DNA of 64,000 bases. Origin: Escherichia virus TH47. The stretch lies in sequence record MT446416.1, one strand, 5' to 3'. Below, piece after piece: positions 2,378-48,900 of the stretch (positions within the stretch are counted from its first letter, which is position 1; each line of letters begins with the position of its first letter). The notes beneath the pieces were generated by a model. It saw only the letters and a program-made list of their open reading frames with translations, ran no database searches and had not been told where the DNA came from. Made by a program: the position numbers and the translations under genes.

Positions 2378-4579
2378 TTAACTGTTTCTCTCACCTTGGG
2401 TGTTTTCAGAGATAGTTCTTAGATAATTATTTGTCTGTTGTACAGCAGATAGTGATTGTTCATTAACATCGGCAAGCTTTTTGAGTATTTCTTTCATTTC
2501 ATCAGAAATCGGTGCTGGTGGACCAGTTCTCGATGTCACTGCACTACCATTATTTATCATCTTCTTAATTGCCTCTGTATCGTCAGGTTTTGGTGGAACT
2601 GGTGGTTCACCTGGTGCCCATGCAGTTTTATCAAAATCTTTACGAGATACAGTTATTTCTGGAGCAACGTTATTTGTTTTTTCAATAACAGGGCGAATGC
2701 GTTCTACACCTGGACGGTTGAATAAACTGTCAGCATAGTCAGATGGTAGTGGTGCTGGTTCTTTGTAGTTACGTGCGGTGTTCCATTTATTGAACTTATC
2801 CCACATTCCTGCAAAATAATCACTAACACTATTTACTCCATTGTCAATGATGCTGTTTACGCTTTCTGCTGGGGTTTCAGTACTGTTATTGAGTTTTATC
2901 TCATTATCAGAACCACCACCGAACCAACTTTTAACAGAATTCCATAGGTTACCAGGTAAATCCATTAAGTTATTCATAAAGGTATCAAATGCTTCTGACA
3001 CTTTAGTGTAACCTGAACCGAATATATCTGCACCCAATCCATCCAACCAAGCTGTAAATTCAGCACCAATACGATCAAGGTAAGCAATTGCATCTTTAGC
3101 AATAGGTACTAACCCAAATCCATCAAGAGCCAATTCCCCAATAAACTCCCATGCACCATCAGTTCTGTCTGCAATGTCAGAAAGATAATCCACAATTGAA
3201 TTTTGTGTATTAGCATACATTATATTAAATGGTTCAGTGAATTCTTTACTAATCCACATATTGAAGCGGTTGGTAAATTGAGTTAATTTATCAGCCGGAT
3301 TATTTTGTGCAGCATTGAATCTGGATTCTGCGGCTAGAAGTTCTTTAATTGCAGCAGCAGAAGCAGCCCCTTCAGAACCACGTTGTTGTTGATAATACAA
3401 CTCCATTTCCAATTCACTTTTATTCTTCTTGGTATATTCCATTATTTTGCGTTGTAAATCAACGGAACTGGTCCCAGATCTAACAAGTTCAGAAACGTAA
3501 TTACTAAGATCGAACAATTCAGGAGCTAATATATCATCAGGAAGTGCTCCAGTTGTGATTTTGGAGTTTACTATGCTTAGAAGTTTTGGTCCAAAGTCAC
3601 CCATTGCTGCGGAAGCTTCAACTATATTCTTTGCCGCAGTTGCTGCTGCATCAGAAGTTAGTCCACCTACATGTTCAAGTGATATTGCAATTGATTTTGC
3701 GTCAAGTGAATCATCAAGAGAACTAGTTTTATTCAACAGTGAATCTACCGACTCACCCATTGCTTTACTGAAAGTGGTTATTGTTTTTATAAATTGTTCA
3801 GTACTGCGTTCTTGGTTAGAACGCTGTAGTAATTCTTTACCACCCAATATTTTTTGAACTTTAATATTCCTAGCAGTGAGATCAATTAGTGTTTTTTGAG
3901 ATATGCCATATAAACCAAGTTCTTTCTGTGCAAGTTGGACATTACCAACTAAGTTTGCGAATGCCATTGTTCCATCGCCATACAACGCACCCAACTGGTT
4001 TACTGCTTGGGCATGAACTGACACTGCCTCAGAAAACTGATCAACACTCATCATCGCTGCACCAGCACCTTTCAGTACTGAACCATAACCTTCAGCCAAT
4101 GCAACACCAGCACTGTTAATTCTGGTGTATACTTCCAATTGTGCATTAAGGGCATTGTATACAGCAAGACCAGCACCAGTAACGAGTTTAAATGCTGCTG
4201 CCGCTGCACCAATTGGACCTGGCATCATTGCTAATGAACCAGCAAATGAGGATGCACTAACGCCTAATGAGTTTACTACAGTACTTACGTTGTTACTGGA
4301 GTTCATCATTGTTTTGCTTACATTAGAAACTTCAGAAGATAGTGATTTGAACAATTTACCAAATGCTTTCCCGTCATCGGCTTGTGCACTTCCACGAGTT
4401 CCACGATTACTGGAAGAACTGGAACTGGAACCATTCTTTTTACTATTTGAACCTGATTTTTTCTTATCATTCTTTATATTTTCAGCTAATAACTCACGGA
4501 TAGCAGTCAAACTATCATTGTTATCTTTAGTTTGATTAACCAACTGCTGTAGTAGGTAATCACTTGTATTGACAGCCAT
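2378..4579 (-). CDS. Large Ala/Gly/Ser-rich virion protein, tape-measure-like (function uncertain)
   Basis: ORF track start (4777) trimmed to ATG at 4579 with AAGGGA RBS; 733 aa, poly-Ser tract, long Ala/Gly-rich helical low-complexity segments typical of tape-measure/ejection proteins; immediately upstream of portal. Confidence 0.4.
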   Translation of the reverse strand: MAVNTSDYLLQQLVNQTKDNNDSLTAIRELLAENIKNDKKKSGSNSKKNGSSSSSSSNRGTRGSAQADDGKAFGKLFKSLSSEVSNVSKTMMNSSNNVSTVVNSLGVSASSFAGSLAMMPGPIGAAAAAFKLVTGAGLAVYNALNAQLEVYTRINSAGVALAEGYGSVLKGAGAAMMSVDQFSEAVSVHAQAVNQLGALYGDGTMAFANLVGNVQLAQKELGLYGISQKTLIDLTARNIKVQKILGGKELLQRSNQERSTEQFIKTITTFSKAMGESVDSLLNKTSSLDDSLDAKSIAISLEHVGGLTSDAAATAAKNIVEASAAMGDFGPKLLSIVNSKITTGALPDDILAPELFDLSNYVSELVRSGTSSVDLQRKIMEYTKKNKSELEMELYYQQQRGSEGAASAAAIKELLAAESRFNAAQNNPADKLTQFTNRFNMWISKEFTEPFNIMYANTQNSIVDYLSDIADRTDGAWEFIGELALDGFGLVPIAKDAIAYLDRIGAEFTAWLDGLGADIFGSGYTKVSEAFDTFMNNLMDLPGNLWNSVKSWFGGGSDNEIKLNNSTETPAESVNSIIDNGVNSVSDYFAGMWDKFNKWNTARNYKEPAPLPSDYADSLFNRPGVERIRPVIEKTNNVAPEITVSRKDFDKTAWAPGEPPVPPKPDDTEAIKKMINNGSAVTSRTGPPAPISDEMKEILKKLADVNEQSLSAVQQTNNYLRTISENTQGERNS

Positions 4580-4715: not shown

Positions 4716-5552
4716 ATGGCAATGAACCCACTAGCTAAGTATACTAAAATTGAAGAACTTGGTACAAAATTGGTCACAAATGGCGTGATTCCTTATAAAG
4801 AAGGAGTTCTTGGCTCTAAAGGTATCAAATGTGGCATTTGTGCTCGTAGTGCACGTGATGAAATGACACTCAATACACCAGATATGCTTCTAAATGGTGA
4901 TGCAATTGCTCGTGTTATTGAAAACTGCGTACCTAACGTACTTGATGCAGATGAACTTTATGTAAATGACGTAGAGCTACTACTTATCGCTATTAAAGTA
5001 GCTTCTAAAGAAGAATCATATGATATTAATGTGACATGCCCTGAATGTAACAAAGAAGGCCGTTTTGAGCGTAGCTTATCATATCTACTAGAAACAGCAC
5101 AAACTTTCAGTGAAGTTCCTACTGTGCAATTGGATAATGGACTAAGTTTAGAGTTTAGACCACTTACTTGGAAGGAATATTCTAACTTCGCAGAAAGAAT
5201 GTTTACAGAACAACAAAAAACTAAATTCCTTGAAACTGCCGAAATGGAGCAGGAAGAAAAAGTTAAAGTGTTTGGTGAAGTATTTGAAAGTATGGCACAA
5301 CTCAACTTTGATATGATCGCAGGAGTTATTGCTAAGGTAATTACACCTGAAGGTGATGAAGTAACTGAAAACGAATTCATTTCTGAATGGCTAGGTCAGC
5401 AGTCCAAAGGAACACTTAAAATAATTCGTGAAAAAATGGATGAAGTACTTGAAATTGGTGTTTCCCATACTATGGAAGTTGAATGCAGTGACTGTAATCA
5501 TCAATGGGAAATTAATGGACTGAAATATGACCCAAGTCATTTTTTCGCATAA
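4716..5552 (+). CDS. Hypothetical protein with three CxxC pairs (possible zinc-ribbon protein)
   Basis: ORF-track start 4656 is TTG; first ATG 4716 has GGAGA RBS; contains CGIC, CPEC, CSDC motifs. Confidence 0.45.
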   Translation: MAMNPLAKYTKIEELGTKLVTNGVIPYKEGVLGSKGIKCGICARSARDEMTLNTPDMLLNGDAIARVIENCVPNVLDADELYVNDVELLLIAIKVASKEESYDINVTCPECNKEGRFERSLSYLLETAQTFSEVPTVQLDNGLSLEFRPLTWKEYSNFAERMFTEQQKTKFLETAEMEQEEKVKVFGEVFESMAQLNFDMIAGVIAKVITPEGDEVTENEFISEWLGQQSKGTLKIIREKMDEVLEIGVSHTMEVECSDCNHQWEINGLKYDPSHFFA

Positions 5553-5761
5553 TGCTTCTCCACTCATCTCCTGAAGAAATACAAGAAGTACTTAAGGAAT
5601 TTGAGTTGAATAAGTCAGATATTAAAACTGCATTAATGGAGTGTTCTGTTTATATGGAAAGTGTTGATTACGGAACACTACTTAATATGCCACTAATTGA
5701 TAGAGACTTATTAGTTAAGTCTTTTAATAAGAAAATTAAAAAACAAAACGAGAAGCACTAA
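5552..5761 (+). CDS. Small hypothetical protein
   Basis: 69-aa ORF; ATG overlaps stop of upstream gene (translational coupling). Confidence 0.4.
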   Translation: MLLHSSPEEIQEVLKEFELNKSDIKTALMECSVYMESVDYGTLLNMPLIDRDLLVKSFNKKIKKQNEKH

Positions 5762-5772
5762 CTCACAAGGAG

Positions 5773-5800
5773 CCAGCACATTGTTGCTGGTTTTTTTTTT
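5773..5800 (+). terminator. Rho-independent terminator
   Basis: Hairpin CCAGCA-cattgt-TGCTGG followed by T10 run directly after stop at 5761. Confidence 0.65.
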
Positions 5801-6562
5801 GGTTTTAAACTACAGAATTGATTGAATTGAATTTTGAAAGGAATTAATTATTTTATAGTGAACTCATCTAACTCATTTCATTCGTTAGCTGAAGAATATT
5901 CGTTACTACGTAACTCATATTCATTTCTTATAATTAATTATAAAGAACTTTAAAAGATTTAATACTTGACGGGATTTGTTGAAGACATTTTCATCCCCCC
6001 GCAGGGGAATGAAGACAATAAAAAAGAGACAATTAAGTCTCTTAATTCTTGACGCTGATGGTTTCAGCATTTATTGTATTGCGAATTTCTTAAAATTCAT
6101 TAAGAACGAAAGCGGGTTGCTCTGTTTCTCTCTATCGCAGTCATGTGCAACGGTCGTCAGTCTTAATCATCCTGACACTCACCTGAAAGTCTATACAATC
6201 AAACTTCAGGCTGTTTATTAAATCACTTAATAAACTCCCTTAGCAAATCTGGTAAGGTGCGATCCTTATACATCTATCGAGGAACTCTCTGTATGCTTAT
6301 CGGAGTTCTTTATTGAGCCGTGTCGCCGTGAGGGGTTCAAACTATGCCCACATCTAACGGGTTTCTTCTGCTCATCGCACTGTTGAACTGCTCATCTGCC
6401 ATCTACATTTTCGATAGGATCAGGTTCTAATTTATATGCATTTCTGCATTCAACAGGATTGTCATCACTACAATTAACATTATAGCACCAAATTCAAAAG
6501 TGTCTCACTATTATGGTAAAAAATTTATAAAAAGTACATAATTCTTGTTATCTGAAGTAACG

Positions 6563-6570
6563 CATAAATA
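6563..6570 (+). promoter_or_regulatory. Candidate late-type promoter -10 box (cATAAATA) for gene 6601
   Basis: CATAAATA 30 nt upstream of ATG 6601. Confidence 0.3.
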
Positions 6571-6600
6571 TTTTGATAAGAATTAGTTTAGTGGGGATTT

Positions 6601-7095
6601 ATGAAGAAAAGATTAAAAGATAGTAAAGAAGCTGCAAACTATCGAAATGAATTACTAAAGAAGCAAAAAGGAATTGATCCTATAATTAAGGAACCAATAA
6701 CTAAGCCAGTACTTGATCACTATCACTTCGAGAATCAACACTGTCGCGGGGTACTCCAGAATGAGATAAACGCCTTTGAGGGTAAGGTTTCCAACGCATG
6801 GAACCGATATGGAAAGCATTTAACTGATATGCCATTACATGAAGTACTAAGAAATCTGGCAGATTATCTTGAAAAGAACAATAACATTCCACCTGAAGAG
6901 CAAGTCATACATCACACTGCACTAACTGTGGATGTTAATAAGTTTAAAAGGCTTCCAGCAACACAGCAAAACGCGATTCTGGAAGGGTTAGGAGTTGTCC
7001 CTGGTAGTAACGTCAAGGAGAGAACTAAGCAAGCCAGAAGGCTCATTAAGGACGGTAAATTAAATATGGTAGATGTAAAAAGAGATACAAAATGA
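6601..7095 (+). CDS. Endonuclease VII-like nuclease (gp49-like His-Me finger; Zn-ligand cysteines absent)
   Basis: LDHYHFENQHCRGVLQNEINAFEG aligns by eye to remembered T4 EndoVII HLDHDHELNGPKAGKVRGLLCNLCNAAEG (D/H/H and N/E catalytic positions kept; the four Cys absent). Confidence 0.5.
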   Translation: MKKRLKDSKEAANYRNELLKKQKGIDPIIKEPITKPVLDHYHFENQHCRGVLQNEINAFEGKVSNAWNRYGKHLTDMPLHEVLRNLADYLEKNNNIPPEEQVIHHTALTVDVNKFKRLPATQQNAILEGLGVVPGSNVKERTKQARRLIKDGKLNMVDVKRDTK

Positions 7096-8114
7096 AAATA
7101 TCATTACCAAACGAAATAAACTTAAAACACATAAATTACAATACAAAAATGCCACAAGAATATTTTGATGATTTAAGTAAGAGATTATCAAAATATGACA
7201 TTATTTTTAATGGATTTATAATTGAAGATGAATGGAAAGGTAATAACACGTTAACTTCTATAGAATGTGAAGGAAACCTCTACAACAACTATCGAATTAA
7301 TAAATTATACAGATATATTAAACGTATGGATACAAAAGGATATCAGAAACCTAAAGGTTTTAACTTAACCCCTGAACTATTGGTACAAAACGTCAACGAT
7401 GAATGTATAAAACGTGGTGGTAAGATTGAATTTATTGGTTATAAACAATTTAATGGTGCAAAAACATATTTGGAATTGAAATGTAATGATTTGGAATCAC
7501 ATGATGAACCATATGAGTGGTGTTCAACGATTTATGATAGTTTTGTCGGAAACAATAGACATTTGAATGGTTGTCATAAATGTTCAGGTAGATATCATTA
7601 CACTATAGAAGAACTTAACAATAATATAAATTATTTTTGTGAAACACGTGGATTCGTAAACCCAGTATTGATAACTAATGAAACTATGAATGGTGTTAAT
7701 AGTATTGTTTCATTCACCTGTCATTGTGGTGAGAAAGCAACGATGACATATGATAGTTTATCACGTGCTCGTTTTTGTATATTATGCAGCGAAGGTAGTT
7801 ATAAACAATATATTCCTGGTTCATTGTATGTATTAGAAGTATATAAAAATGATAAACATGTGGCATATAAATTTGGTATATCAAACTATGTCCCAAAACG
7901 CCTCATGGAATATGGAAAATCTCCATGTAATGTTAAGATTATTCATCAATATGATTTTGAAGATGGTTCTATTCCATATAAAATTGAAAATAAAATAAAA
8001 AACTCATTACCAATCAGATATCTTACCAAAAATGAGTTCGGTGTAGGATATACAGAAACGATAGATACAACTTTATACGAAGATTTAATTAATATTATAA
8101 AAAAGGGAGCATAA
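7092..8114 (+). CDS. AT-rich Cys-rich protein with C-terminal GIY-YIG/T5orf172-like motif (putative homing-endonuclease-like gene)
   Basis: ATGA overlap with upstream gene; markedly lower GC than neighbours; several CxxC/HxC pairs in N-terminal half; C-terminal LYVLEVYKNDKHVAYKFGIS...PKRLMEYG resembles GIY-(10)-YIG plus conserved Arg. Confidence 0.4.
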   Translation: MKISLPNEINLKHINYNTKMPQEYFDDLSKRLSKYDIIFNGFIIEDEWKGNNTLTSIECEGNLYNNYRINKLYRYIKRMDTKGYQKPKGFNLTPELLVQNVNDECIKRGGKIEFIGYKQFNGAKTYLELKCNDLESHDEPYEWCSTIYDSFVGNNRHLNGCHKCSGRYHYTIEELNNNINYFCETRGFVNPVLITNETMNGVNSIVSFTCHCGEKATMTYDSLSRARFCILCSEGSYKQYIPGSLYVLEVYKNDKHVAYKFGISNYVPKRLMEYGKSPCNVKIIHQYDFEDGSIPYKIENKIKNSLPIRYLTKNEFGVGYTETIDTTLYEDLINIIKKGA

Positions 8115-11322: not shown

Positions 11323-12148
11323 CTTCGTTTTTCCTTTCAATCATGTTCATTTCAATTTCGATTTGACGAGTGTGTGATGGTGTAAAACCATGCATCTCAA
11401 GTAAATCGTCTCGGATGTTACGAACATTTTTCTCACTATTAAGAATCGAACGGAAACTATTGTTAACGAACGAAGTATAGTAAGAGAAAGGATTCAACTG
11501 TACTGCTGGTTTATCTTTTTTGTAAAGAATACTCTCTTTAAAGAGAAGTGCGTTTTTAACTAATTGTATTCTGGCATCACCCATCATTTCATCCAAATAT
11601 GTATAGTTTCTATAGTTGGATTTGTGTGAGATTTCCTCTGCCAGTTTAATGAACATTTTACCTAGTTCATTAGTGATTTTACCATGAACAGTACTGAATT
11701 CTCCGTCTTCAAGATCACCTTTCCAGTGAGAACGAACAACTTCGTACAGAATACCTTCTTCATCTACAATGTAATGTTTGAATGGTTCAAAATTAACTCT
11801 TGTATCTGCTGGGATATGATCATCGGTAATTACACGAATAACCACCTCATCGATAGGTACATCAGTCAGTACTAAATTGTGCTCATCTGCGTATTCCTTC
11901 GCTTTCTTCGCACTCATACCTTCTTTTTCACGAATTGCATCAAGCATTTCATTGTTGAGACGTTTAATACGTGCTGCTTTAGCTTTATCTAAAAGTTCTG
12001 CTGTAATTTCGGATTCATCAAAAACTATATAATCATACATACTGTAGCACTTATCAAGTAACCAGCAATATGAGATTTTACTTTTTTGTATCTCACGAAG
12101 TAAATCAGCATTGTTAAGATACTTTTTACGCTTCGGCCTATTTGTCAT
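11309..12148 (-). CDS. Late-transcription sigma factor, gp55-like, with an inserted/extended N-terminal region
   Basis: ORF-track start 12250 is TTG; ATG 12148 (MTNRPKRKKYLNNADLL) has GGAGAG RBS and resembles T4 gp55 N-terminus; C-terminal ELGKMFIKLAEEISHK...NPFSYYTSFVNNSFRSIL resembles gp55 GLAIMLIAEGLSKR...NPHAYITQACFNAFVQRI (from memory). Confidence 0.6.
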   Translation of the reverse strand: MTNRPKRKKYLNNADLLREIQKSKISYCWLLDKCYSMYDYIVFDESEITAELLDKAKAARIKRLNNEMLDAIREKEGMSAKKAKEYADEHNLVLTDVPIDEVVIRVITDDHIPADTRVNFEPFKHYIVDEEGILYEVVRSHWKGDLEDGEFSTVHGKITNELGKMFIKLAEEISHKSNYRNYTYLDEMMGDARIQLVKNALLFKESILYKKDKPAVQLNPFSYYTSFVNNSFRSILNSEKNVRNIRDDLLEMHGFTPSHTRQIEIEMNMIERKNEDGSI

Positions 12149-12236
12149 TATTTCAACTCTCCATGTTTTAAATCCAATAGGTACATTCCTTGTACCATCA
12201 ATGTTATTATAGCACCAAAAACGTCTTTGTCCCACG

Positions 12237-12244
12237 TATAAATA
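12237..12244 (+). promoter_or_regulatory. Candidate T4-type late promoter (TATAAATA)
   Basis: Exact TATAAATA 36 nt upstream of ATG 12280, first gene of the plus-strand baseplate block. Confidence 0.45.
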
Positions 12245-12279
12245 CATCAAATGTTCCCTTCTTATGGAGAATCAAAAAG

Positions 12280-13011
12280 ATGATTGATCGTAGAATCCGA
12301 TTAAGACCTAAAACCGCAGGTGCTAACTATGTGTATGGTGATTTTGGCAACAGTTCAGAACCAACATTGCTATCGTTTCTGCGTCCAACAAATGGTTTGG
12401 TTTGGACTGTAACCCCAACTGTAACTGAACAAAGGTCTGTTCAATATGAAACACAGTCCCCTATACATACTAACAGTAACTATAACAACTACAAGAATAC
12501 AACAAACACTGTTTTCACTATCCAAGGTGAGTTTTATGCGAACACTGCTGCTGAAGCAATGTATGCATTGGCTTGTGTTCATTTTATTCGTTCCGTGTCC
12601 TTAATGGACTTTGGTCGTCAAGCAGCATCTGCTAATAATCCCGAACTAGCAATTGCAGGTGCACCACCACCAATTTTACTATTAAGTGGGTATGGTCGTT
12701 ATACATATAATGATATTCCTGTTATTTTGAAAGCATATAATTTTACATATCCAAATGATGTGTCTTACATTCAGGTTCCATTGGATAGTAGTGATAGTAC
12801 TTTTAATTTATCTGATATGGATAGTCGTAAATTCTTCGAACAGCTTAGAAGTACTGGATATATGAATCCACAAGATGAGGTATGGGTTCCACAGAAAATA
12901 TCGGTAACGCTTCAACTTGAAGAACAACCAACATCTGATTACATGACTAAAAAGTTCAACCTAAATGCATTTAAGCGTGGTGAACTATTACGTAATGGAG
13001 GATTTATCTAA
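12280..13011 (+). CDS. Baseplate/tail structural protein (hypothetical)
   Basis: ORF-track start 12190 is TTG; first ATG 12280 with GGAGA RBS; first gene of baseplate operon; no firm family assignment. Confidence 0.4.
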   Translation: MIDRRIRLRPKTAGANYVYGDFGNSSEPTLLSFLRPTNGLVWTVTPTVTEQRSVQYETQSPIHTNSNYNNYKNTTNTVFTIQGEFYANTAAEAMYALACVHFIRSVSLMDFGRQAASANNPELAIAGAPPPILLLSGYGRYTYNDIPVILKAYNFTYPNDVSYIQVPLDSSDSTFNLSDMDSRKFFEQLRSTGYMNPQDEVWVPQKISVTLQLEEQPTSDYMTKKFNLNAFKRGELLRNGGFI

Positions 13012-13325
13012 TGTCCAATTATAGTCAATACTCTCCTTATGCAAAGGTTAAACAAACGTGGTATCTTGGTTACAATTTACCACGTGATATGGTTCCTGCT
13101 GATACTGACGACTTCTATGTAATTCCATTGAAGTATGAGCATCAACCTTGGCGTTTAGCATACGAAATGTATGGTAATGAACGTCTGTATTATGTATTTG
13201 CCCTATTGAATCCTGATATATTAGGAGAAGACCCAATATACAATTTTAATAGTGGTATCACAATTCGTGTTCCCTCAAATCAACGAGTGCAAAACTATTT
13301 GAACGGTACTCGTAACATAGGTTAA
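13011..13325 (+). CDS. Small baseplate protein, possibly LysM-like fold (gp53/protein-X-like?)
   Basis: 104 aa; GGAGG RBS; stop/start overlap with upstream gene; position before hub genes; motif DDFYVIPLKYEHQPWRLAYEMYGNERLYYVFALLNP loosely LysM-like. Confidence 0.3.
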   Translation: MSNYSQYSPYAKVKQTWYLGYNLPRDMVPADTDDFYVIPLKYEHQPWRLAYEMYGNERLYYVFALLNPDILGEDPIYNFNSGITIRVPSNQRVQNYLNGTRNIG

Positions 13326-13336
13326 TGGAGTAAAGT

Positions 13337-15592
13337 ATGGCAGATTTACAAAGTTCTGTTGATAATTTTAAAAATGATATTTCAAACATCACAAGTTCTG
13401 CAAAGGCAGCAAAAGAAACTGCAACAAGTACTATTGAAAGCTTAAAAGCCACTGCTAATACTTTGCAAAATGATCTTGAAAAAGTAAAAAACAATTTTAA
13501 AGCTAAGGTTAGTAACGTACAGTCTTTACCAAAGCAAAGTGCAAGCGTTGACCAAGTGTATGAAGACTTGGATCTAAGTGAGTTTGTTATTCCTTATGAC
13601 AATAAATTGTTAAAGTATGACAATCCAACTTGGCACTTTTCCCTTTTCGCATTAGACAAGGATGATTTCAAAAACTTCTGGCTTTACCCAGATGCTGAAG
13701 TTCAACGTCATGTCATCTCTGAAAGTGGTGTAACTGGAAAGTATAATATCACAAGTGTTCAGATGACGCAAGCTGGTCCTTCAACTCCAGGGATGACAAC
13801 CAACTATTGCTTCAACACAGCAGTACTGAACCTTTCAGAAAACAATAGTATGAGTTTATATGATGAACTAATTTCTTTAAGTAATAAACTAAGGTATCAT
13901 AAGTTCATGGACTTACCTTTAATATTAGAATTGAAATTTATTGGATTCAATACTAATGGTGTACCTGAAACTATACCAGAAACAACTCGTAAATGGTCCG
14001 TGAAGATTAACAGTGTTACCGCTAGTGCATCACAAAGTGGTAGTACTATGATGTATTCTATGAGTCTTGTTCATAACCGTACTGCTCTAGTGGATAACGT
14101 TGAATGGACTCTTAAAGAACCATTTAACTGCACAGCAGAAAACTTTGGTGATTTTTGTTTTGATTTGGAAGATAAATTGAATCAAATGGCAGACCAACAA
14201 TATGGTTATTTGCGTTATAAATTTGGTGAGTTAGCAGAAGGGAAGTTCTTTGAATTTAAAGTTGCACCAGATTTACAGGATTTGTTTATAAACTATGATT
14301 CTAAACAGATGGCAGAAGCTGGAGCTACAAAAAGTGGTGCACAGGGTTCTAAAAACTTTTCATGGAATCCAAGTACTCCAATTTCTCGAATTATCGATGA
14401 CGTAATAGATACCTGTACTGTACAGGCTGATGATAGTACTAGTGTTCGTCAATTTGTTAATATAATCCCACTTAAACAGTATGTTGGATTTGATAATTAC
14501 CGAAACACGTCAGTTTATAAAGTTGTTTTCTATATAGTTCGTTTTAAAATTGGTGATATTGTTCATGAATCCGATTTACAGCCAGAAAACTTTACATTTG
14601 AGTATTTCTTTGAAAATGCCGAGAAATATGTAGACCCAAATGACCAAAAACCAAAGATTAACATGAAAACTTACAATTATCAGTTTAGTGGACTCAATAG
14701 TGAGATTCTAGACCTTGATTTGAAGTTTGACCAGCAATTCTTTGTGGCTACAACTCGTAACCCTGGGCCAATACAGGATGTTGCTAACCACGCTGGTACT
14801 CATACCTCCCAAGAATTGAATATACAAGGGGTTCAGTACAACAGTATACCAGATGCATGGGCAAAAACAAGTGATTTACGCGTTACACGTGATCTTGGTG
14901 GTATGTTAACACAGGCTCAGGAACAACTACTCAATCAAGTTGAAACTTTAGCAAAAGAACAAATGCAAGTTGGTAATGCTGAAGAACAGGATCGTTATAA
15001 TAACTATCAAGTAAACGTTCTACCACAGTATATTGAAGATTATCTAACCACATATGAAGAAAATGACGGTGGAACCGATGGAATTGGTCATCGATATGGT
15101 GAAGTATTCACAATGCCAACTGAAGCAACCAATAATGAAACAACATTATCTGCATCATTGAACGATAACAGTAGTACATATGAAATGGACCGCCGTAAAA
15201 TTCGTGACAACTATTACAATCGTCCATTCTTGTGTAAATTGGATATGCGTGTAGTTGGTGACCCATATTGGTTAGGTTGGAGTGATTATCCATATATCCA
15301 ATATCTTGAACAGGTAATTAATGGAGAAGATATGGAAATTAATCCAGAAGATTACCATGTAGCAAACTACATTACATCTGAAGCATATCTTTTATTGAAA
15401 TTACAACCTGTAGTTTCTATAAATGATAACACTGGTGTTCTTGATATTAATACCCCAACTACATTTAACCAAACTGTTTATCGTGTAAACAAAATTGTTC
15501 ATGATTTTGGTGCAGGTGGTTCATTTACACAACAAATTCAGGCTGCAATTGTAATTCGTGCACTCAAACGTCACGATAGTATAATTGAATAA
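13337..15592 (+). CDS. Large baseplate hub-associated structural protein (gp27-like position)
   Basis: 751 aa; GGAG RBS; directly upstream of gp5-like spike gene; N-terminal coiled-coil low-complexity region. Confidence 0.4.
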   Translation: MADLQSSVDNFKNDISNITSSAKAAKETATSTIESLKATANTLQNDLEKVKNNFKAKVSNVQSLPKQSASVDQVYEDLDLSEFVIPYDNKLLKYDNPTWHFSLFALDKDDFKNFWLYPDAEVQRHVISESGVTGKYNITSVQMTQAGPSTPGMTTNYCFNTAVLNLSENNSMSLYDELISLSNKLRYHKFMDLPLILELKFIGFNTNGVPETIPETTRKWSVKINSVTASASQSGSTMMYSMSLVHNRTALVDNVEWTLKEPFNCTAENFGDFCFDLEDKLNQMADQQYGYLRYKFGELAEGKFFEFKVAPDLQDLFINYDSKQMAEAGATKSGAQGSKNFSWNPSTPISRIIDDVIDTCTVQADDSTSVRQFVNIIPLKQYVGFDNYRNTSVYKVVFYIVRFKIGDIVHESDLQPENFTFEYFFENAEKYVDPNDQKPKINMKTYNYQFSGLNSEILDLDLKFDQQFFVATTRNPGPIQDVANHAGTHTSQELNIQGVQYNSIPDAWAKTSDLRVTRDLGGMLTQAQEQLLNQVETLAKEQMQVGNAEEQDRYNNYQVNVLPQYIEDYLTTYEENDGGTDGIGHRYGEVFTMPTEATNNETTLSASLNDNSSTYEMDRRKIRDNYYNRPFLCKLDMRVVGDPYWLGWSDYPYIQYLEQVINGEDMEINPEDYHVANYITSEAYLLLKLQPVVSINDNTGVLDINTPTTFNQTVYRVNKIVHDFGAGGSFTQQIQAAIVIRALKRHDSIIE

Positions 15593-45932: not shown

Positions 45933-48900
45933 ATGTACTCGATTAAAACAGATCTCGATATAACTGGTGGTGCAACGGTTGGTAAAGATCTTCTTGTGAA
46001 AGGCGATGCAGTATTCAATAAAAATCTAACAGTTAATGGAACCGTAACTTTTGCTGACGCTGTATTCACTGCGATTGAAGCAGGAACTGTAGACATTTCA
46101 TCTACACTAGATGTTGCTGGTAAAGCATCATTGAATGGTGGGATTGAAGTTCATGGTAATTCCGTAATTGGTAATTTACCAGTTGGCTCTGATACTGCAA
46201 CGATTAATTCTAATGCACAATTCCAAAGCCCAGTATCAATGGCAGGTAACCTAACACAAACGGCTGGCACTGCTGTACTAAAAGATACCCAAGTGGCATC
46301 AATGGATGTTCTTGGAACTTCTTCATTTAAAGGTAATATTACTGCTGAAACTGGCACTACCGCAGCATTTGACAAAATAACTGCAACTGATGCAACATTC
46401 ACAAACACTGCAACTACTGATATCACATCAACTGGAACTGCAAACTTTAAAGATGTGAATATTTCCGGTACACTAGGTGGAACATTTAGTCTATCTGATG
46501 TTAATGCAACAACTCTAACTGTTTCTGGTTTAACCAGTCTACAAGGTGGTGTTACATTAGGTTCCAACATTACTGGTGTGAATAGTAGTGCAAACTTCCG
46601 TGATATTAAAATTGGTTCCAATGCTGCAAACACTAACTACCGTTTGAGCTTTAACTATTCTGCTCCAAGTCTTCGTCCAACTGTAATTCTACAGAACGAA
46701 ATCCAATCAGAATTGATGTCTCCAGCTACCCTAAGTGTATTGAAAACTGCATCTTTTGGTGATTCGTCATTATCCACTTTTGGTATTACTGGTAATGGTC
46801 TAAACAAACTAGATTACCTAACAGTATCTGGTAACTCTGTTCAAGATCCAACAACTCCACTATTACAAGTAACTTCAGGTAAAACTAAAGTTCATGATTT
46901 CGAAGTAACAGGAACTGCAACTATTCCTAACATTGAAAGTACTGGAACTGCTAATTTTAATAACATCAACGTATCTGGTACACTCGGCGGTACTTTCAGT
47001 CTTGATGATATTGAAGCAAACACTCTAACTGTTTCTGGATTAACTAGCCTTGTTGGTGGTGTAACTTTGGGTGCTGATATTTCCGGTGCTAATAGTACTG
47101 CTAATTTTAAAGCAGTAAGTTTAGGACAAAACGCAGCCGATGCTAACGTTAAGTATGGTTTTGCTTATTCTGCCCCTGGTGCACGTCCAACTGTAATTCT
47201 ACAAAATGAAATTCAGTCTGAACTAGTATCTCCAGCAGTACTAAATGTACAAAAAACTGCTACCTTCGGTGATGCATCTCTTGCAACCTATGGTATCACA
47301 GGTAACGGTCTAAACAAACTAGATTATCTATCTATTACTGGTAATGGTACACAAAGTCCAGCAACGCCACAACTACAAGTAGCTGGTAAATCAGTACTAA
47401 ATGATGTTGAATTCACTGGTACTGTAACTGGCCTAACAGTTGATGTAAGTGGTCAAGACCTAACTCCTAAATCTGTTGTTGCTGCTGAAGCAATCAAAGG
47501 ACAAACCCTTGAATCTGTTGGTCAAACCACCGTAGGAACTAACCTACAAGTTGGTGGAACAGCTAATGTTGTTGGTGCACTAACTGGTACTGCTGCAACC
47601 TTTACTGGTGACGTAAGTGCTGCTAAAGGTACTTTCAGTGGTGATGTTAGCGTTACTGGGCAAACTGTAACTGTACGTGATTTAGTAGTAACTGGCACAA
47701 CTACTGGTGTAACTGCCCAAGCTGACGTTGATGGTCTTGATATCGCCCCAAATAAAGTTGATGTTACAACAACACTATCTGTTGCTGGGGACACTACTTT
47801 AGCTGGTCTAACTGCTAGTTCAGTAACAAGTACTGGTGATGTTACTGGTGCGTCTGTATCTGGTAATACAGTAACTGCGGCTGGTGCACTATCTGGTGGT
47901 TCTCTTGCAGTAACTGGTGCTGGTTCTATGGCTTCACTAACTGTTCCAAGTATTACTGGGGACACTACTTTTGCTAATAACGTAACTATTACTGGAACAC
48001 TAACTCCGAGTAGTATAGATTTAAGCACTACTGATGTAAGTGCTGCTTCTTTAACAACTACTGGTAACGTAACTGTTGGTGGTTCTCTTGCAGTAACTGG
48101 TGCTATTGATTTGTCTGCTGCTGATGTAGTAACAAAATCAGTTAGTGCAACTAACCCAAGTACATTTGGTGTAATTAATGCATCTTCTGTTGCCGCAACT
48201 GGTGACGTTTCAGGTGGCACTCTAACTACTACTGGTGCAGCGAAAGTAGGAACACTAACTAGTACTGGTGTAGTATCTGGTTCGCGTTTGTCTTCTGGTA
48301 CTGCAACAATCTCAACTTCTGTAACAGTTCCAACTTTACAAGCTGAAGCTGCTGGTGCTGGTACACTAAATCTAGCAAGTAATGTTGTCGCGGCAAAAGA
48401 TCTAACTGTCACTGGTGTATTCAAACCTGAAGGTGGTCTTGACCTAACAACTGTTGATATTACTGCAAACTCACTAACTACTACTGCTGATGTTAATGTT
48501 GGTGGAAACTTAGTAGTTGATGGTACTTTTGACCTAAGTGCTGCTGATGTATCAGTTAAATCTCTTGTAAGTGCAGAGGCAATTACTAGTGGTGGTGTGA
48601 TTACCGTTACCGATTCAACCAATACTAGTTCGTTCCCTAAAATTACTTCAACTGATGCAACACTCTTTACAGTAAATGCAGGTACTATTAATGCAACTGG
48701 CAACAGTGTACTACAAAGTGTATCAGCTACTCAAGTAACTGCTACTAGTGCTGAATTTTCTGGTAGTGGCCTTGGTCTTCAAGTTGATAATGATGCAAAC
48801 GTTGGTGGTGCATTATCTGTTGGTGGCATTGCAACTGTTGGTTCTTTAACAACAACTGCTGCTTCTCTTAATATTGCAAAAAATACTGCAATCAATGGTG

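Follow-up and report, generated by a model that had tools for sequence, protein, structure and literature searches.

Several classes of phage, plasmid and island elements depend on non-coding RNA or on short recognition sequences. GOLLD and ROOL are large phage- or prophage-associated RNAs of unknown function that assemble into RNA-only complexes (PMC12286853); they are several hundred nucleotides long, fold into many helices with pseudoknots supported by covariation, are encoded as stand-alone genes and have no known protein partner. The primer RNA II of ColE1-type plasmids is a transcript of roughly 0.5 kb, made from a constitutive sigma-70-type promoter, whose fold matters. T4-type phages start replication from promoter-driven R-loops, as at oriF (uvsY) and oriG (gene 34), and plasmids carrying such origins are replicated and packaged by T4. 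Phage satellites such as PICI, P4 and PICMI carry copies of pac/cos sites or origins as cis-acting hijack signals, and in 2025 integrase-only islands were shown experimentally to be satellites of a Pseudomonas jumbo phage, as with satellite I55, by an unknown recognition mechanism (PMC12595487). In jumbo phage PA5oct, a distant relative of the Rak2-like phages, RNA-seq defined four ORF-less transcribed regions of 236-619 nt as lncRNAs, two of them highly expressed (PMC7318152).

Here we examined positions 5762-6600 of a 64,000-nt stretch of Escherichia virus TH47 (MT446416.1; hereafter, the window). The results reveal a self-contained gene for a large, knotted non-coding RNA of a family that matches no Rfam family and that we found in no paper searched. 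Related copies are present in every Rak2-like jumbo phage examined and next to integrases in small bacterial genomic islands, making the RNA a candidate for the signal that links jumbo phages to the islands that may ride on them.

A gene-free region encoding a structured non-coding RNA on the minus strand

The initial annotation described an unusually long, hairpin-rich and locally GC-rich non-coding region, and this observation is confirmed in both coordinates and content. Between the 69-aa ORF ending at 5761 and the endonuclease VII gene starting at 6601 there are 839 bp, the longest gene-free stretch in the window, without any ORF conserved in relatives. A greedy ORF map of the window yielded a median inter-ORF gap of 14 bp; the two largest gaps both lie inside this region, separated only by a spurious 81-aa TTG ORF, and the next largest gap elsewhere is 180 bp. 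GC content is 0.385-0.44 at 6000-6500, against 0.26-0.30 in the flanks. All five hairpins named in the initial annotation (5988-6011, 6027-6042, 6151-6171, 6183-6209 and 6282-6310) are covarying helices of the consensus structure. What had not been seen is that the RNA strand is the minus strand, that the element is one of a family of several copies per genome, and that it also occurs in bacteria. The features of the locus are as follows.

5767-5806, plus strand: intrinsic terminator of the converging operon (baseplate hub and the 69-aa ORF), which bounds the element on its 3' side and is also annotated in the UE-S1 record.
5830-5965, minus strand: AT-rich downstream module, conserved in phage and bacterial copies, with a UAUUAAAU tract, a hairpin GUUAC-GUA-GUAAC (5914-5902; the loop is AACGAAGUGA in most copies) and a hairpin CUAAC...GUUAG (5888-5868) that corresponds to TTGAC plus a covarying hairpin in other copies. 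Stem changes such as CAGUAC/GUACUG, AUAAC/GUUAU, CAUUC/GAAUG, CAUAC/GUAUG and CUUGC/GCAAG were seen by eye and were not included in the covariation counts.
5966-5985, minus strand: conserved 3' tract CAACAAAUCCCGUCAA, of unknown function, the second copy of the CGUCAR motif; the first copy is at 6050-6055, inside the hairpin region GCUGAAACCAUCAGCGUCAAG (6050-6070).
5966-6472, minus strand: core of the structured RNA, about 450-500 nt; nhmmer model positions 2-558 match full length in every homologue.
5988-6011, minus strand: universal CCCC-UGCG-GGGG hairpin CAUUCCCC-UGCG-GGGGGAUG, with a UNCG-type loop and a G5-6 run, lying after the terminator-like hairpin and present in all 60 sequences aligned; a U.G/C-G alternation (CG:30/UG:29) is seen only in the minus-strand sense.
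6018-6043, minus strand: terminator-like hairpin GAGAC-UUAAUU-GUCUC followed by U6, present in about two thirds of the phage copies, with a covarying stem and a conserved U-run.
6073-6199, minus strand: pseudoknot PK2, in which the loop of H8 (AUUGUAU, 6199-6193) pairs with AUACAAU (6079-6073), which stacks directly on helix H11 (UGCGA 6139-6135 / UCGCA 6084-6080); 99.5% paired, with all 7 pairs covarying (for example UA:31/CG:29, GC:40/AU:20 and AU:28/UA:23/GC:7). The RaK2 copy adds a further variant, UUGAAU/AUUCAA.
6108-6151, minus strand: pseudoknot PK3, in which GUUGC (6151-6147) pairs with GCAAC (6120-6116) in the loop of hairpin H12 (GAGAG 6132-6128 / CUUUC 6112-6108); 100% paired, with 3 of 5 pairs covarying. 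H12 pair 649-671 reads GU:36/AU:24, a strand-diagnostic alternation, and the region holds the invariant GACCGUU and ACCCGCUU.
6155-6177, minus strand: hairpin H9 (GTCAG...CTGAC in the initial annotation), reading UA:34, AU:14, CG:6, GC:6 at one pair.
6181-6212, minus strand: hairpin H8 (CCTGAA...TTCAGG), with the conserved loop UUUGAUUGUAUAGAC and all 9 pairs covarying.
6253-6268, minus strand: hairpin H7 (UAAG...CUUA), followed by the invariant single-stranded UACCA and CUAAGGGAG (about 6240-6232).
6282-6308, minus strand: hairpin H6 (AGGAACTC...GAGTTC), with all pairs covarying, for example GC:28, AU:16, CG:8, UA:6 at one pair.
6314-6374, minus strand: long-range helices H5a (UGAGC 6374-6370 / GCUCA 6318-6314) and H5b (CCGU 6360-6357 / ACGG 6329-6326), 100% and 99.6% paired, with double changes in 4 of 5 H5a pairs, enclosing the invariant segments AAACCCGU and CGGCAAU.
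6380-6456, minus strand: 5' domain, in which pseudoknot PK1 pairs CUGUUGAA (6456-6449) with the loop UCAACAG (6386-6380) of the 3-bp hairpin H4 (6391-6389 / 6379-6377); PK1 is 87-92% paired, with 7 of 8 pairs covarying, and H4 pair 183-196 reads UA:30, AU:18, CG:12. The domain also holds the variable hairpin H1 (6448-6436) and hairpin H3 with the conserved loop GAAAAUGUA (6417-6399).
6479-6506, minus strand: promoter of the RNA gene, with a -35-like GAGACA (6506-6501), a 16-nt spacer and an extended -10 TGcTATAAT (6487-6479); the predicted start is about 6472.
6601-7095, plus strand: endonuclease VII gene, transcribed divergently from the RNA gene and not part of the element.

To assess whether selection acts on an RNA fold, as the initial annotation had proposed to check through folding and through covariation against homologous phages, we compared the consensus structure with slid controls. 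On 35 sequences, the 93 pairs are 94.8% paired, against 34-42% when slid, with 537 compensatory cells against 60-86. The same structure holds on 60 distinct homologues, including 25 not used to derive it, with 93.2% of cells paired against 36-43% and 1031 compensatory cells against 132-185; R-scape significance was not computed, and full-length covariance models were not built or used to scan all of IMG/VR, GTDB and metatranscriptomes. Compensatory changes are found in 74 of the 93 pairs, and G.U outnumbers A.C by 202 to 41, which fixes the strand. RNAalifold also scores the minus strand better than the plus strand (-49.5 against -39.6 kcal/mol, and 74 against 53 pairs). Folding energy is beyond chance on both strands (z = -3.4 for minus and -2.9 for plus), with 0 of 100 shuffles folding as well.

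The promoter motif tGRRAC(a/g)-N16/17-TGnTATAAT lies upstream of nearly all of the 35 phage copies and, with TATACT in place of TATAAT, of all 8 bacterial copies, and it belongs to a common promoter class on the coding strand of phage 121Q. Plus-strand promoter-like sites of the TTGACG-N17 type were rejected, because their putative -10 hexamers covary as helix strands and are not conserved. An inserted motif, UACAAUAUAGAUCCGUCCAAAAUU, was likewise rejected as a general phage promoter or binding site, because it occurs only inside the elements.

Database scans named in advance as tests of the region gave no match to a described RNA. ARAGORN returned no tRNA or tmRNA gene in the window, and a scan of the whole window against Rfam 15 (4227 models) returned no gathering-level hit. 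At E<10, positions 5700-6700 gave only noise hits of 15-29 bits against cut-offs of 40-120, lying on terminators, and a bacterial copy gave the same result. PGAP leaves the E. coli copy unannotated. The genome papers on fEgEco12 and UE-S1, and a survey of more than 10,000 candidate phage RNAs (29-151 nt), do not mention the element.

A conserved protein-coding frame, stated beforehand as an outcome that would overturn the non-coding reading, was not found. Several GenBank records place small hypothetical ORFs here (fEgEco12 g340/g341, RaK2 ORF245, fHe-Yen9-04 g347/g348). The longest stop-free stretches in 35 homologues, however, have a median of 79 aa, within the expectation from shuffled sequence (median 66, 95th percentile 101), and fall on different strands and positions in different copies. 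Phage 121Q, which is 92% identical, keeps only 50 aa open, and substitutions are compensatory in helices rather than showing a codon pattern. A decayed or mis-sequenced protein-coding gene, or short real genes as annotated, is therefore a most improbable explanation.

Distribution in jumbo phages and bacterial islands

No repeats of the element were detected within the 64-kb window, its other copies lying outside it. Phage 121Q has four diverged copies, all co-oriented and each in its own 0.6-0.85-kb gene-free gap, and BLAST counts 4-5 matching places in most related jumbo-phage records. The copies lie about 57, 112, 191 and 304 kb from the mapped left end, and all are transcribed left to right, whatever the orientation of the neighboring genes. 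Paralogues are only 65-76% identical, and paralogue groups are orthologous across genera. The window copy (type A, upstream of endonuclease VII) is syntenic across genera, and the RaK2 copy lies downstream of a sigma-factor gene, as does 121Q copy D. Each copy is an independent transcription unit, sometimes preceded by its own upstream terminator. No protein partner is shared among the neighbors, which comprise a sigma factor, Dam/N6 methylases, an ADP-ribosylglycohydrolase, endonuclease VII and unknowns, so that the proximity to endonuclease genes pointed out in the initial annotation is incidental.

Homology searches also revealed bacterial and metagenomic copies, with full-length homologues directly downstream of integrases in small Enterobacterales islands of Serratia, Enterobacter, Buttiauxella, Silvania and E. 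coli. The E. coli LR-29-1 island lies beside ffs, and the Serratia fonticola GTA-SR07 island beside rof/tilS; the complete islands were not delimited by their att sites. The sequenced stretches of these islands, about 8 kb around the RNA, show int, cI-like, Ner-like and two small ORFs, and no recognizable replication or packaging gene. The adjacent integrase is interchangeable between tyrosine and serine types, and phage copies have no recombinase nearby. Islands acquired the type-A copy more than once: the E. coli island is 80.6% identical to the type-A copy of phage BF, whereas another island clade groups with type-A copies of a different phage lineage. A PADLOC search of the island proteins next to the RNA returned only a marginal HTH match of the cI-like protein, and no known defense system. 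The element is absent from the 72,556 plasmids of PLSDB.

Candidate functions of the RNA

The initial annotation suggested a structured ncRNA, a replication origin, a packaging site or an intron/mobile-element remnant, and this interpretation is supported only in part: the structured ncRNA is strongly supported, the replication origin is neither shown nor excluded, the packaging site is unlikely and the intron or mobile-element remnant is not supported.

We hold as demonstrated, with high confidence, that the gap is a self-contained gene for a minus-strand non-coding RNA, which host-type RNA polymerase would start at about 6472. Its transcript folds into a compact core of at least 17 helices, three of which are loop-to-distant-strand pseudoknots, held together around invariant unpaired tracts (GAUGAG, AAACCCGU, CGGCAAU, AUAAAG, GAUAGA, CUAAGGGAG, GACCGUU, ACCCGCUU). 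The terminator-like hairpin, the universal G-run hairpin and the AT-rich module follow. Selection acts on the RNA fold, not on a protein, and the unit is a portable module. What the RNA does, by contrast, is inferred and unproven.

We slightly favor, with a probability of only about 0.4, a model in which the RNA works at its own locus as the recognition and priming part of a phage replication origin, analogous to T4 R-loop origins and resembling ColE1 RNA II in size and in its need for a folded transcript. In this model, the folded 5' core would be the handle for a phage factor or for correct processing, the G-run and the AT-rich downstream block would be where the transcript stays hybridized to the template, and the downstream hairpins would act on the displaced strand. 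Integrase-only islands would carry a copy of the type-A unit so that the infecting jumbo phage replicates them and therefore carries them along.

The model is suggested by the single genome-wide orientation of the copies, the lack of a shared protein partner, the strong conservation that continues past the terminator-like hairpin into an AT-rich block of GC 0.27, the islands without visible replication or packaging genes that repeatedly acquired the type-A copy, and the precedent of the jumbo-phage satellites (PMC12595487). Phage 121Q also encodes a UvsW-like helicase and RNase H. Other observations weigh against it. T4 R-loop origins need no elaborate RNA fold, and three pseudoknots with many invariant unpaired bases are more typical of ribozymes, riboswitch-like RNAs or ribonucleoproteins acting in trans. 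No expression, 5'/3'-end, R-loop or replication-initiation data exist for any member, and that the islands are satellites of Rak2-like phages is an untested inference by analogy. The terminator-like hairpin would stop many transcripts before they reach the G-run and the AT-rich block, there is no conserved antisense promoter of the ColE1 RNA I kind, and the absence from plasmids argues against an origin that host factors alone can fire. GC skew shows no origin signature, simply following gene orientation, and is uninformative on this point.

Only slightly less likely is a trans-acting "ornate" large RNA, which would leave its template and act as a ribonucleoprotein scaffold, a ribozyme, a ligand or protein sponge, or a self-assembling RNA particle. 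Four or five strongly promoted gene copies would supply the dose, and islands would carry a copy either for the same benefit or as a decoy that poisons the phage's use of its own RNA. The size and complexity of the fold, kept across diverged paralogues, the independence of each transcription unit, the convergence of the type-A copy on neighboring genes, which means that it is not a leader for them, the precedent of GOLLD and ROOL, and the defense cargo that islands commonly carry (PMC12595487) are in keeping with this view. However, no conserved protein partner gene lies nearby, and a trans role does not by itself explain the conservation beyond the terminator-like hairpin, the single orientation of all copies even against the local gene direction, or the repeated acquisition of this particular unit by islands with no visible replication or packaging genes.

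A cis-regulatory leader, controlling read-through into downstream genes by attenuation or by processive antitermination in the manner of put, EAR or nut/boxA, appears unlikely. In most paralogue groups the RNA is co-directional with the next gene, which starts 120-190 nt after the core, an internal terminator-like hairpin is present, and group-2 copies end in a bona fide TTGACT-N17-TAnnAT promoter. The tract CUCAACAAAUCUCGUCAG, which follows a stable hairpin, faintly resembles the rrn boxA region, a resemblance (of CUCAACAAAU...UCAG to boxA) that was not tested and is not relied on. The type-A copy, however, runs head-on into the baseplate-hub operon and its terminator in every genus, and thus has nothing to regulate, and in bacterial islands the RNA converges on the 3' end of the cI-like gene; the position at the head of a controlled operon expected of antitermination RNAs is therefore lacking. 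Moreover, one third of copies lack the terminator-like hairpin, and known antitermination RNAs are 70-120 nt long, not 500.

A remnant or ORF-less copy of a mobile RNA element, such as a group I or II intron, a retroelement RNA or the guide RNA of a transposon-type nuclease or recombinase, is very unlikely. The multiple dispersed copies, the integrases adjacent to the bacterial copies and the homing-endonuclease-like genes nearby in the window and in 121Q could suggest such an origin. Nevertheless, no intron, retron or omega/bridge-RNA model matches even at E<10, there is no exon context, the flanks being complete genes or terminators rather than split genes, the copies are anciently syntenic rather than recently mobile, and the element carries its own promoter inside the conserved unit. 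A packaging site is unlikely, given 4-5 dispersed copies per genome, none of them in the first 26 kb from the experimentally mapped left terminus of fEgEco12, a stretch that holds the 21-kb terminal repeat, and a terminase gene that is far away.

These results describe a new class of large structured RNA, about 0.5 kb long with three well-supported pseudoknots; large, complex, highly conserved bacterial or phage RNAs are rare, and the known ones have repeatedly turned out to have unusual biochemistry. They also identify a conserved core feature of the Rak2-like jumbo phages that genome papers have missed, leaving it blank or filling it with spurious small ORFs, and thereby correct annotation in dozens of records. 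More speculatively, and doubtful on present evidence, the 0.7-0.85-kb unit could be an RNA-based recognition module through which a jumbo phage identifies DNA to replicate or to carry, acting as an origin whose specificity lies in a folded transcript, which integrase-only islands of Enterobacterales have repeatedly copied so as to ride Rak2-like jumbo phages. If so, this would be the first sequence-level hijack signal proposed for satellites of jumbo phages, and a new kind of RNA-defined origin. The element gives the question of how jumbo phages recognize such islands a concrete, directly testable candidate, and suggests where to look for the so far unmapped replication origins of these 350-kb genomes.

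Comparison with described systems

The RNA-seq-defined lncRNAs of PA5oct are not homologous to the element: a covariance model of its 3' domain gives no hit in any of the four regions, while it finds RaK2 at 105 bits. GOLLD and ROOL resemble it in kind, as large, multi-pseudoknot RNAs supported by covariation and encoded on phages or integrated elements, but this is not membership, since neither sequence nor structure matches the Rfam models (RF01998 and RF03087) even at E<10. The element further differs from them in its host range (Enterobacterales and their jumbo phages), in its 4-5 diverged paralogues per genome at conserved positions and in its conserved post-terminator DNA/RNA module; homo-oligomeric self-assembly was not assayed here.

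As in known phage satellites, the islands carry an integrase, a cI-like repressor and little else, and share with a lytic phage infecting the same bacterial order a non-coding unit that was acquired more than once. The shared unit is here an RNA gene, not a short terminase site; no mobilization experiment exists for these islands, and the published jumbo-phage system is in Pseudomonas, with an unrelated phage.

With ColE1 RNA II and its origin, the element shares a roughly 0.5-kb folded transcript from its own sigma-70-type promoter, a G-run near the 3' part, conserved hairpins further downstream and, in this view, no need for an element-encoded initiator protein. There is no homology, however, and a terminator-like hairpin lies ahead of the G-run. 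As neither the 3' end of the transcript nor any persistent hybrid is known, the promoter and fold alone leave the primer function, which is wholly untested, undecided.

Similarly, the observed features neither establish nor dismiss a T4-type R-loop origin. Like T4, these phages, which are relatives of T4, have a T4-like replisome, and 121Q carries several dispersed units, each a promoter followed by an AT-rich stretch; replication initiation at these sites was not measured. T4 origins, on the other hand, use MotA-dependent middle promoters, of which none is present here, and a short unwinding element directly downstream, and their transcripts have no conserved fold, whereas in the present element about 500 nt of conserved, knotted RNA lies in between.

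A gene-free region conserved as a multi-copy family

The window derives from an Asteriusvirus-like (121Q / PBECO4 / fEgEco12) jumbo coliphage, and its 5500-6900 stretch is 96.7% identical to fEgEco12 and 89% identical to 121Q. The region singled out in the initial annotation as an unusually long, hairpin-rich non-coding stretch lies between a 69-aa ORF ending at 5761 and the endonuclease VII gene starting at 6601. At 839 bp, it contrasts with a median inter-ORF gap of 14 bp in the window, where the next largest gap elsewhere spans 180 bp. GC content rises to 0.39-0.44 at 6000-6500, against 0.26-0.30 in the flanks. These results confirm the observation. As suggested at the outset, the stretch was also folded and screened for known RNAs. 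It folds better than shuffled sequence on either strand (z = -3.4 and -2.9), but it contains no tRNA and no Rfam family, either at gathering thresholds over the whole window or at E<10 over 5700-6700, where only 15-29-bit noise hits on terminators were obtained.

To determine whether the region is conserved, we performed a blastn search with the gap alone, which identified 70 phage records, all of them Rak2-like jumbo phages. A core at window positions of about 5948-6442 is kept at 68-76% identity in different genera (GAP32, CBB, BF, fHe-Yen9-04, XbC2, Munch and, more weakly, RaK2 and K64-1), and most records present 4-5 separate matching places. Analysis of the complete 121Q genome revealed four copies, at 90.3-90.7, 192.8-193.3, 247.5-248.1 and 326.5-327.3 kb, all in the same orientation and each within its own 0.6-0.85-kb gene-free gap. 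Pattern scans of IMG/VR, followed by an nhmmer profile search, yielded 35 distinct copies, every one of which matches the profile end to end (positions 2-558), and the element therefore has defined boundaries.

A conserved protein-coding frame had been named in advance as a finding that would overturn a non-coding interpretation, and none was found. Stop-free stretches have a median of 79 aa, no longer than in shuffled sequence, and they change strand and position between copies. The small hypothetical ORFs that GenBank records place inside the RNA gene (fEgEco12 g340/g341, fHe-Yen9-04 g347/g348, of 23 aa each, and RaK2 ORF245; positions 1835-2222, 1305-1457 and 1488-1694 of the retrieved stretches L002, L006 and L061) are not conserved among copies and are probably annotation artefacts. 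A coding gene is hence not supported, and we consider it extremely unlikely.

A structured RNA read from the minus strand

Alignment of the copies revealed invariant blocks separated by helices whose sequences change in a compensatory way. To assess covariation against homologous phages, a test that had been proposed beforehand, we derived a structure from RNAalifold and a covariation scan of all column pairs. The structure comprises 93 pairs in 17 named helices, which the counting procedure splits into 18, and three of the helices are pseudoknots. On the 35-sequence alignment, 94.8% of cells are paired, against 34-42% when partners are slid by 1-3 columns, 69 pairs show changes on both sides and 537 cells are compensatory, against 60-86 in the slid controls; none of 500 shuffles reached the observed values. 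We then added 25 further sequences from metagenomes and bacteria that had played no part in deriving the structure, for a total of 60 sequences at under 97% identity. On this set, the same structure gives 93.2% paired cells, against 36-43%, and 1031 compensatory cells, against 132-185. Pseudoknot PK2, which pairs the loop (6199-6193) of the CCTGAA...TTCAGG hairpin with 6079-6073, is 99.5% paired and all seven of its pairs covary, whereas PK3 is 100% paired. All five hairpins listed in the initial annotation are helices of this structure, and its interpretation, which offered a structured non-coding RNA as one of several possibilities, is thus supported in part.

Three independent lines of evidence fix the strand. 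First, G.U cells outnumber A.C cells 202 to 41, and several pairs alternate G.U with A-U or G-C only in the minus-strand sense (for example GU:36/AU:24 and CG:30/UG:29), although this ratio is somewhat favoured because the helices were chosen with G.U allowed on this strand. Second, a promoter, tGRRAC-N16/17-TGnTATAAT, lies immediately upstream on the minus strand in nearly all phage copies and, with TATACT as the -10, upstream of all bacterial copies. Third, a hairpin followed by a T-run, whose stem covaries, lies at 6043-6018 on the minus strand, and the universal hairpin after it has a C(UNCG)G-type loop only in that sense. RNAalifold also prefers the minus strand (-49.5 against -39.6 kcal/mol).

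In 121Q, the extended -10 motif TGnTATAAT occurs 101 times (for example at 5208, 15313, 21703, 101459, 258205 and 321919), 85 of them on the coding strand and 16 on the other, and 19 of these sites carry the same -35 motif, an unusual tGGGACA/tGAGACA/tGGAACA located 16-17 nt upstream. This appears to be a regular, phage-specific promoter class that the RNA genes use. A near-identical terminator-promoter cassette, AGGGTTGACTTCGGTCAGCCCTTTTTGCTATAAT, in which the -35 TTGAC is part of the stem of a terminator hairpin, is also repeated at least four times in 121Q (98719, 109300, 110582 and 112750).

From 5' to 3' on the minus strand, the element comprises the following features.

Features of the RNA element (minus strand, 5' to 3')
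6506-6479: promoter, with the start predicted near 6472
a variable leader hairpin
5' domain: PK1, a hairpin with loop GAAAAUGUA, and long-range helices around AAACCCGU and CGGCAAU
hairpins H6 and H7, followed by invariant CUAAGGGAG
a variable insertion site, carrying in many copies a 40-nt module, UACAAUAUAGAUCCGUCCAAAAUU
3' domain: H8/PK2, H9, PK3/H12, H11 and H13
a hairpin ending in CGUCAR
6043-6018: the terminator-like hairpin, present in about two thirds of the phage copies
the universal CCCC-UGCG-GGGGGG hairpin
CAACAAAUCYCGUCAR
about 140 nt of AT-rich sequence with two further hairpins

The stems of the last two hairpins change between copies, as judged by eye and without counting. In one paralogue group this last part is a clear TTGACT-N17-TAnnAT promoter for the next gene, whereas in the window copy it ends at the terminator of the converging baseplate-hub operon. 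The ~40-nt module, (U)GUACAAUAUAG(A/U)U(C/G)CGUCCAAAAUUU, sits at one or both of two insertion points in different copies (columns ~340-385 and ~515-552 of alignment A1; for example, 47457-48041 of stretch L012 and 1965-2505 of stretch L001). UE-S1 has gained one relative to 121Q and the window, and a regular-expression scan found the module nowhere else in the 121Q genome. Its role is unknown, but it could be a protein-binding or tertiary-contact module.

Distribution in jumbo phages and bacterial islands

In the Mimasvirus/Eneladusvirus-type genomes the copies cluster by locus, not by genome, so the duplications predate the genera. The window copy, designated type A, is flanked by SbcC and a divergent endonuclease VII gene on one side, and by the converging 69-aa ORF and baseplate hub on the other, and the same synteny holds in Asteriusvirus, Mimasvirus (GAP32, CBB), BF-like phages and uncultured lineages. 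In the window, a 340-aa ORF at 7092-8114 (plus strand) with a weak GIY-YIG-type (T5orf172 / MUG113) domain overlaps the stop codon of endonuclease VII. At this position fEgEco12 and 121Q go straight from endonuclease VII to the SbcC-like gene, and similarity to them ends inside the 3' part of the endonuclease VII gene, at about 6872; this looks like a window-specific insertion of a homing-endonuclease-like gene. Other groups of copies follow a sigma-factor gene or a 600-aa protein, or precede a Dam methylase, an N6 methylase, an ADP-ribosylglycohydrolase or unknown genes. A covariance model, which covers only the 3' domain, finds the RaK2 copy at 105 bits, again just downstream of a sigma-factor gene as in 121Q copy D, but finds nothing in the four RNA-seq-defined 'lncRNAs' of PA5oct (PMC7318152).

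The mapped left terminus of fEgEco12 corresponds to 121Q position 135,458. On that map, the four copies lie about 57, 112, 191 and 304 kb from the left end, and none is in the first 26 kb, which includes the 21-kb terminal repeat. All are transcribed left to right, including type A, whose immediate neighbours point the other way. The physical left end itself (positions 1-1688 of the fEgEco12 terminus stretch L142, equivalent to 121Q 135,458-137,160) lies in a separate gene-free region of about 1.7-2 kb that has no copy of the RNA element and is a candidate for terminus or packaging signals.

To investigate whether the element occurs outside phages, we searched with a 22-base pattern from the 3' domain, which hit 8 stretches in the GTDB species genomes and 68 in metagenomes. 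All 8 genome hits, and nearly all the metagenome hits, are real homologues, most of them full length. The genome hits are in Serratia fonticola (a complete chromosome), Serratia sp., Silvania, Buttiauxella, Enterobacter chinensis and other Enterobacteriaceae. In each, the RNA lies directly downstream of, and co-directional with, an integrase gene, which encodes a tyrosine recombinase in some islands and a large serine recombinase in others. The usual downstream genes encode a cI-like repressor (HTH plus S24 peptidase) on the opposite strand, a Ner-like HTH_35 protein, a 286-aa membrane ORF and an LprI-like protein, whereas another island type carries two ParB/RepB-like genes instead. Eighteen of the 76 new loci are of this island kind. 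Island boundaries were not determined, since only about 8 kb per locus was available, but the sequenced parts show no recognisable replication or packaging genes and no PADLOC defence system. In S. fonticola (NZ_CP183218.1), the rof (Rho-inhibitor) gene is present as two near-identical tandem copies at the edge of the island, next to tilS (2511-3226 on the RNA-sense strand of stretch L070; plus-strand 4775-5490), suggesting a target-site duplication made when the serine-recombinase island inserted.

Bacterial copies keep the whole unit, from promoter to downstream hairpins. The type-A copy and the bacterial copies converge on their neighbours, and a cis-regulatory leader, which fails for both, is therefore considered unlikely. 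The element is absent from 72,556 plasmids and present in 2 of 5,426 complete E. coli genomes. In E. coli strain LR-29-1 it lies in an island beside ffs, unannotated in a 1.4-kb gap, and is full length (409 bits). This island also carries DUF4326, DUF488 and a dual-OB-domain protein in one operon, plus a small recombinase (positions 11997-13728 of stretch L141), which may be uncharacterised defence cargo. The LR-29-1 copy is 80.6% identical to the type-A copy of Serratia phage BF, whereas the other island copies cluster with type-A copies of a different jumbo-phage lineage. Phages and islands have therefore exchanged the type-A unit more than once.

Possible functions and relation to known RNAs

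Together, these results show that the element is a stand-alone gene whose selected product is a folded RNA, while what this RNA does is inferred; expression, transcript ends, partners and phenotype have not been shown. Two models fit best. In the first, to which we tentatively assign a probability of about 0.4, the element is a composite replication origin in which the transcript acts at its own locus. T4-type phages begin replication from promoter-driven R-loops at several dispersed sites and later dissolve these with UvsW, and plasmids that carry such a site are replicated and packaged by T4. 121Q encodes UvsW-like helicase and RNase H. The presence of 4-5 dispersed units, their single genome-wide orientation, kept even against the local gene direction, their strict synteny, the conservation that runs past the terminator-like hairpin into a G-run and an AT-rich block with further hairpins, and the absence of a common protein neighbour all fit this model, and ColE1 RNA II is a precedent for a roughly 0.5-kb primer whose fold is essential. 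The model would also explain why islands with no visible replication or packaging genes repeatedly acquired this unit. A 2025 study showed that integrase-only islands can be satellites of a jumbo phage and are preferentially packaged about 1000-fold, by an unknown recognition mechanism (PMC12595487); that the islands reported here are satellites of Rak2-like phages is an analogy, not a result. Against this model, R-loop origins need no knotted RNA, the terminator-like hairpin precedes the G-run, there is no RNA I-like antisense promoter, the element was not found on any of the plasmids searched and GC skew is uninformative.

In the second model, which we regard as possible and only slightly less likely, the element encodes a trans-acting ornate RNA. 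Its size, its pseudoknots and its invariant unpaired bases are what one sees in ribozymes, ribonucleoproteins and the phage-associated GOLLD and ROOL RNAs. Multiple strongly promoted copies would supply the dose, and islands could use a copy as a decoy. This model does not by itself explain the post-terminator conservation, the global orientation or the island captures. A remnant of a mobile RNA is not supported and appears very unlikely.

No Rfam 15 family matches the element, PGAP leaves it unannotated and the genome papers for close relatives do not mention it. A survey of more than 10,000 candidate phage RNAs covered only motifs of 29-151 nt, and our literature searches, which did not extend to subscription-only publications, found no description. 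Although the element resembles 'ornate' phage RNAs in kind, it failed every test of homology to known RNA families that we were able to apply, and with this qualification on the literature we consider it a new family.
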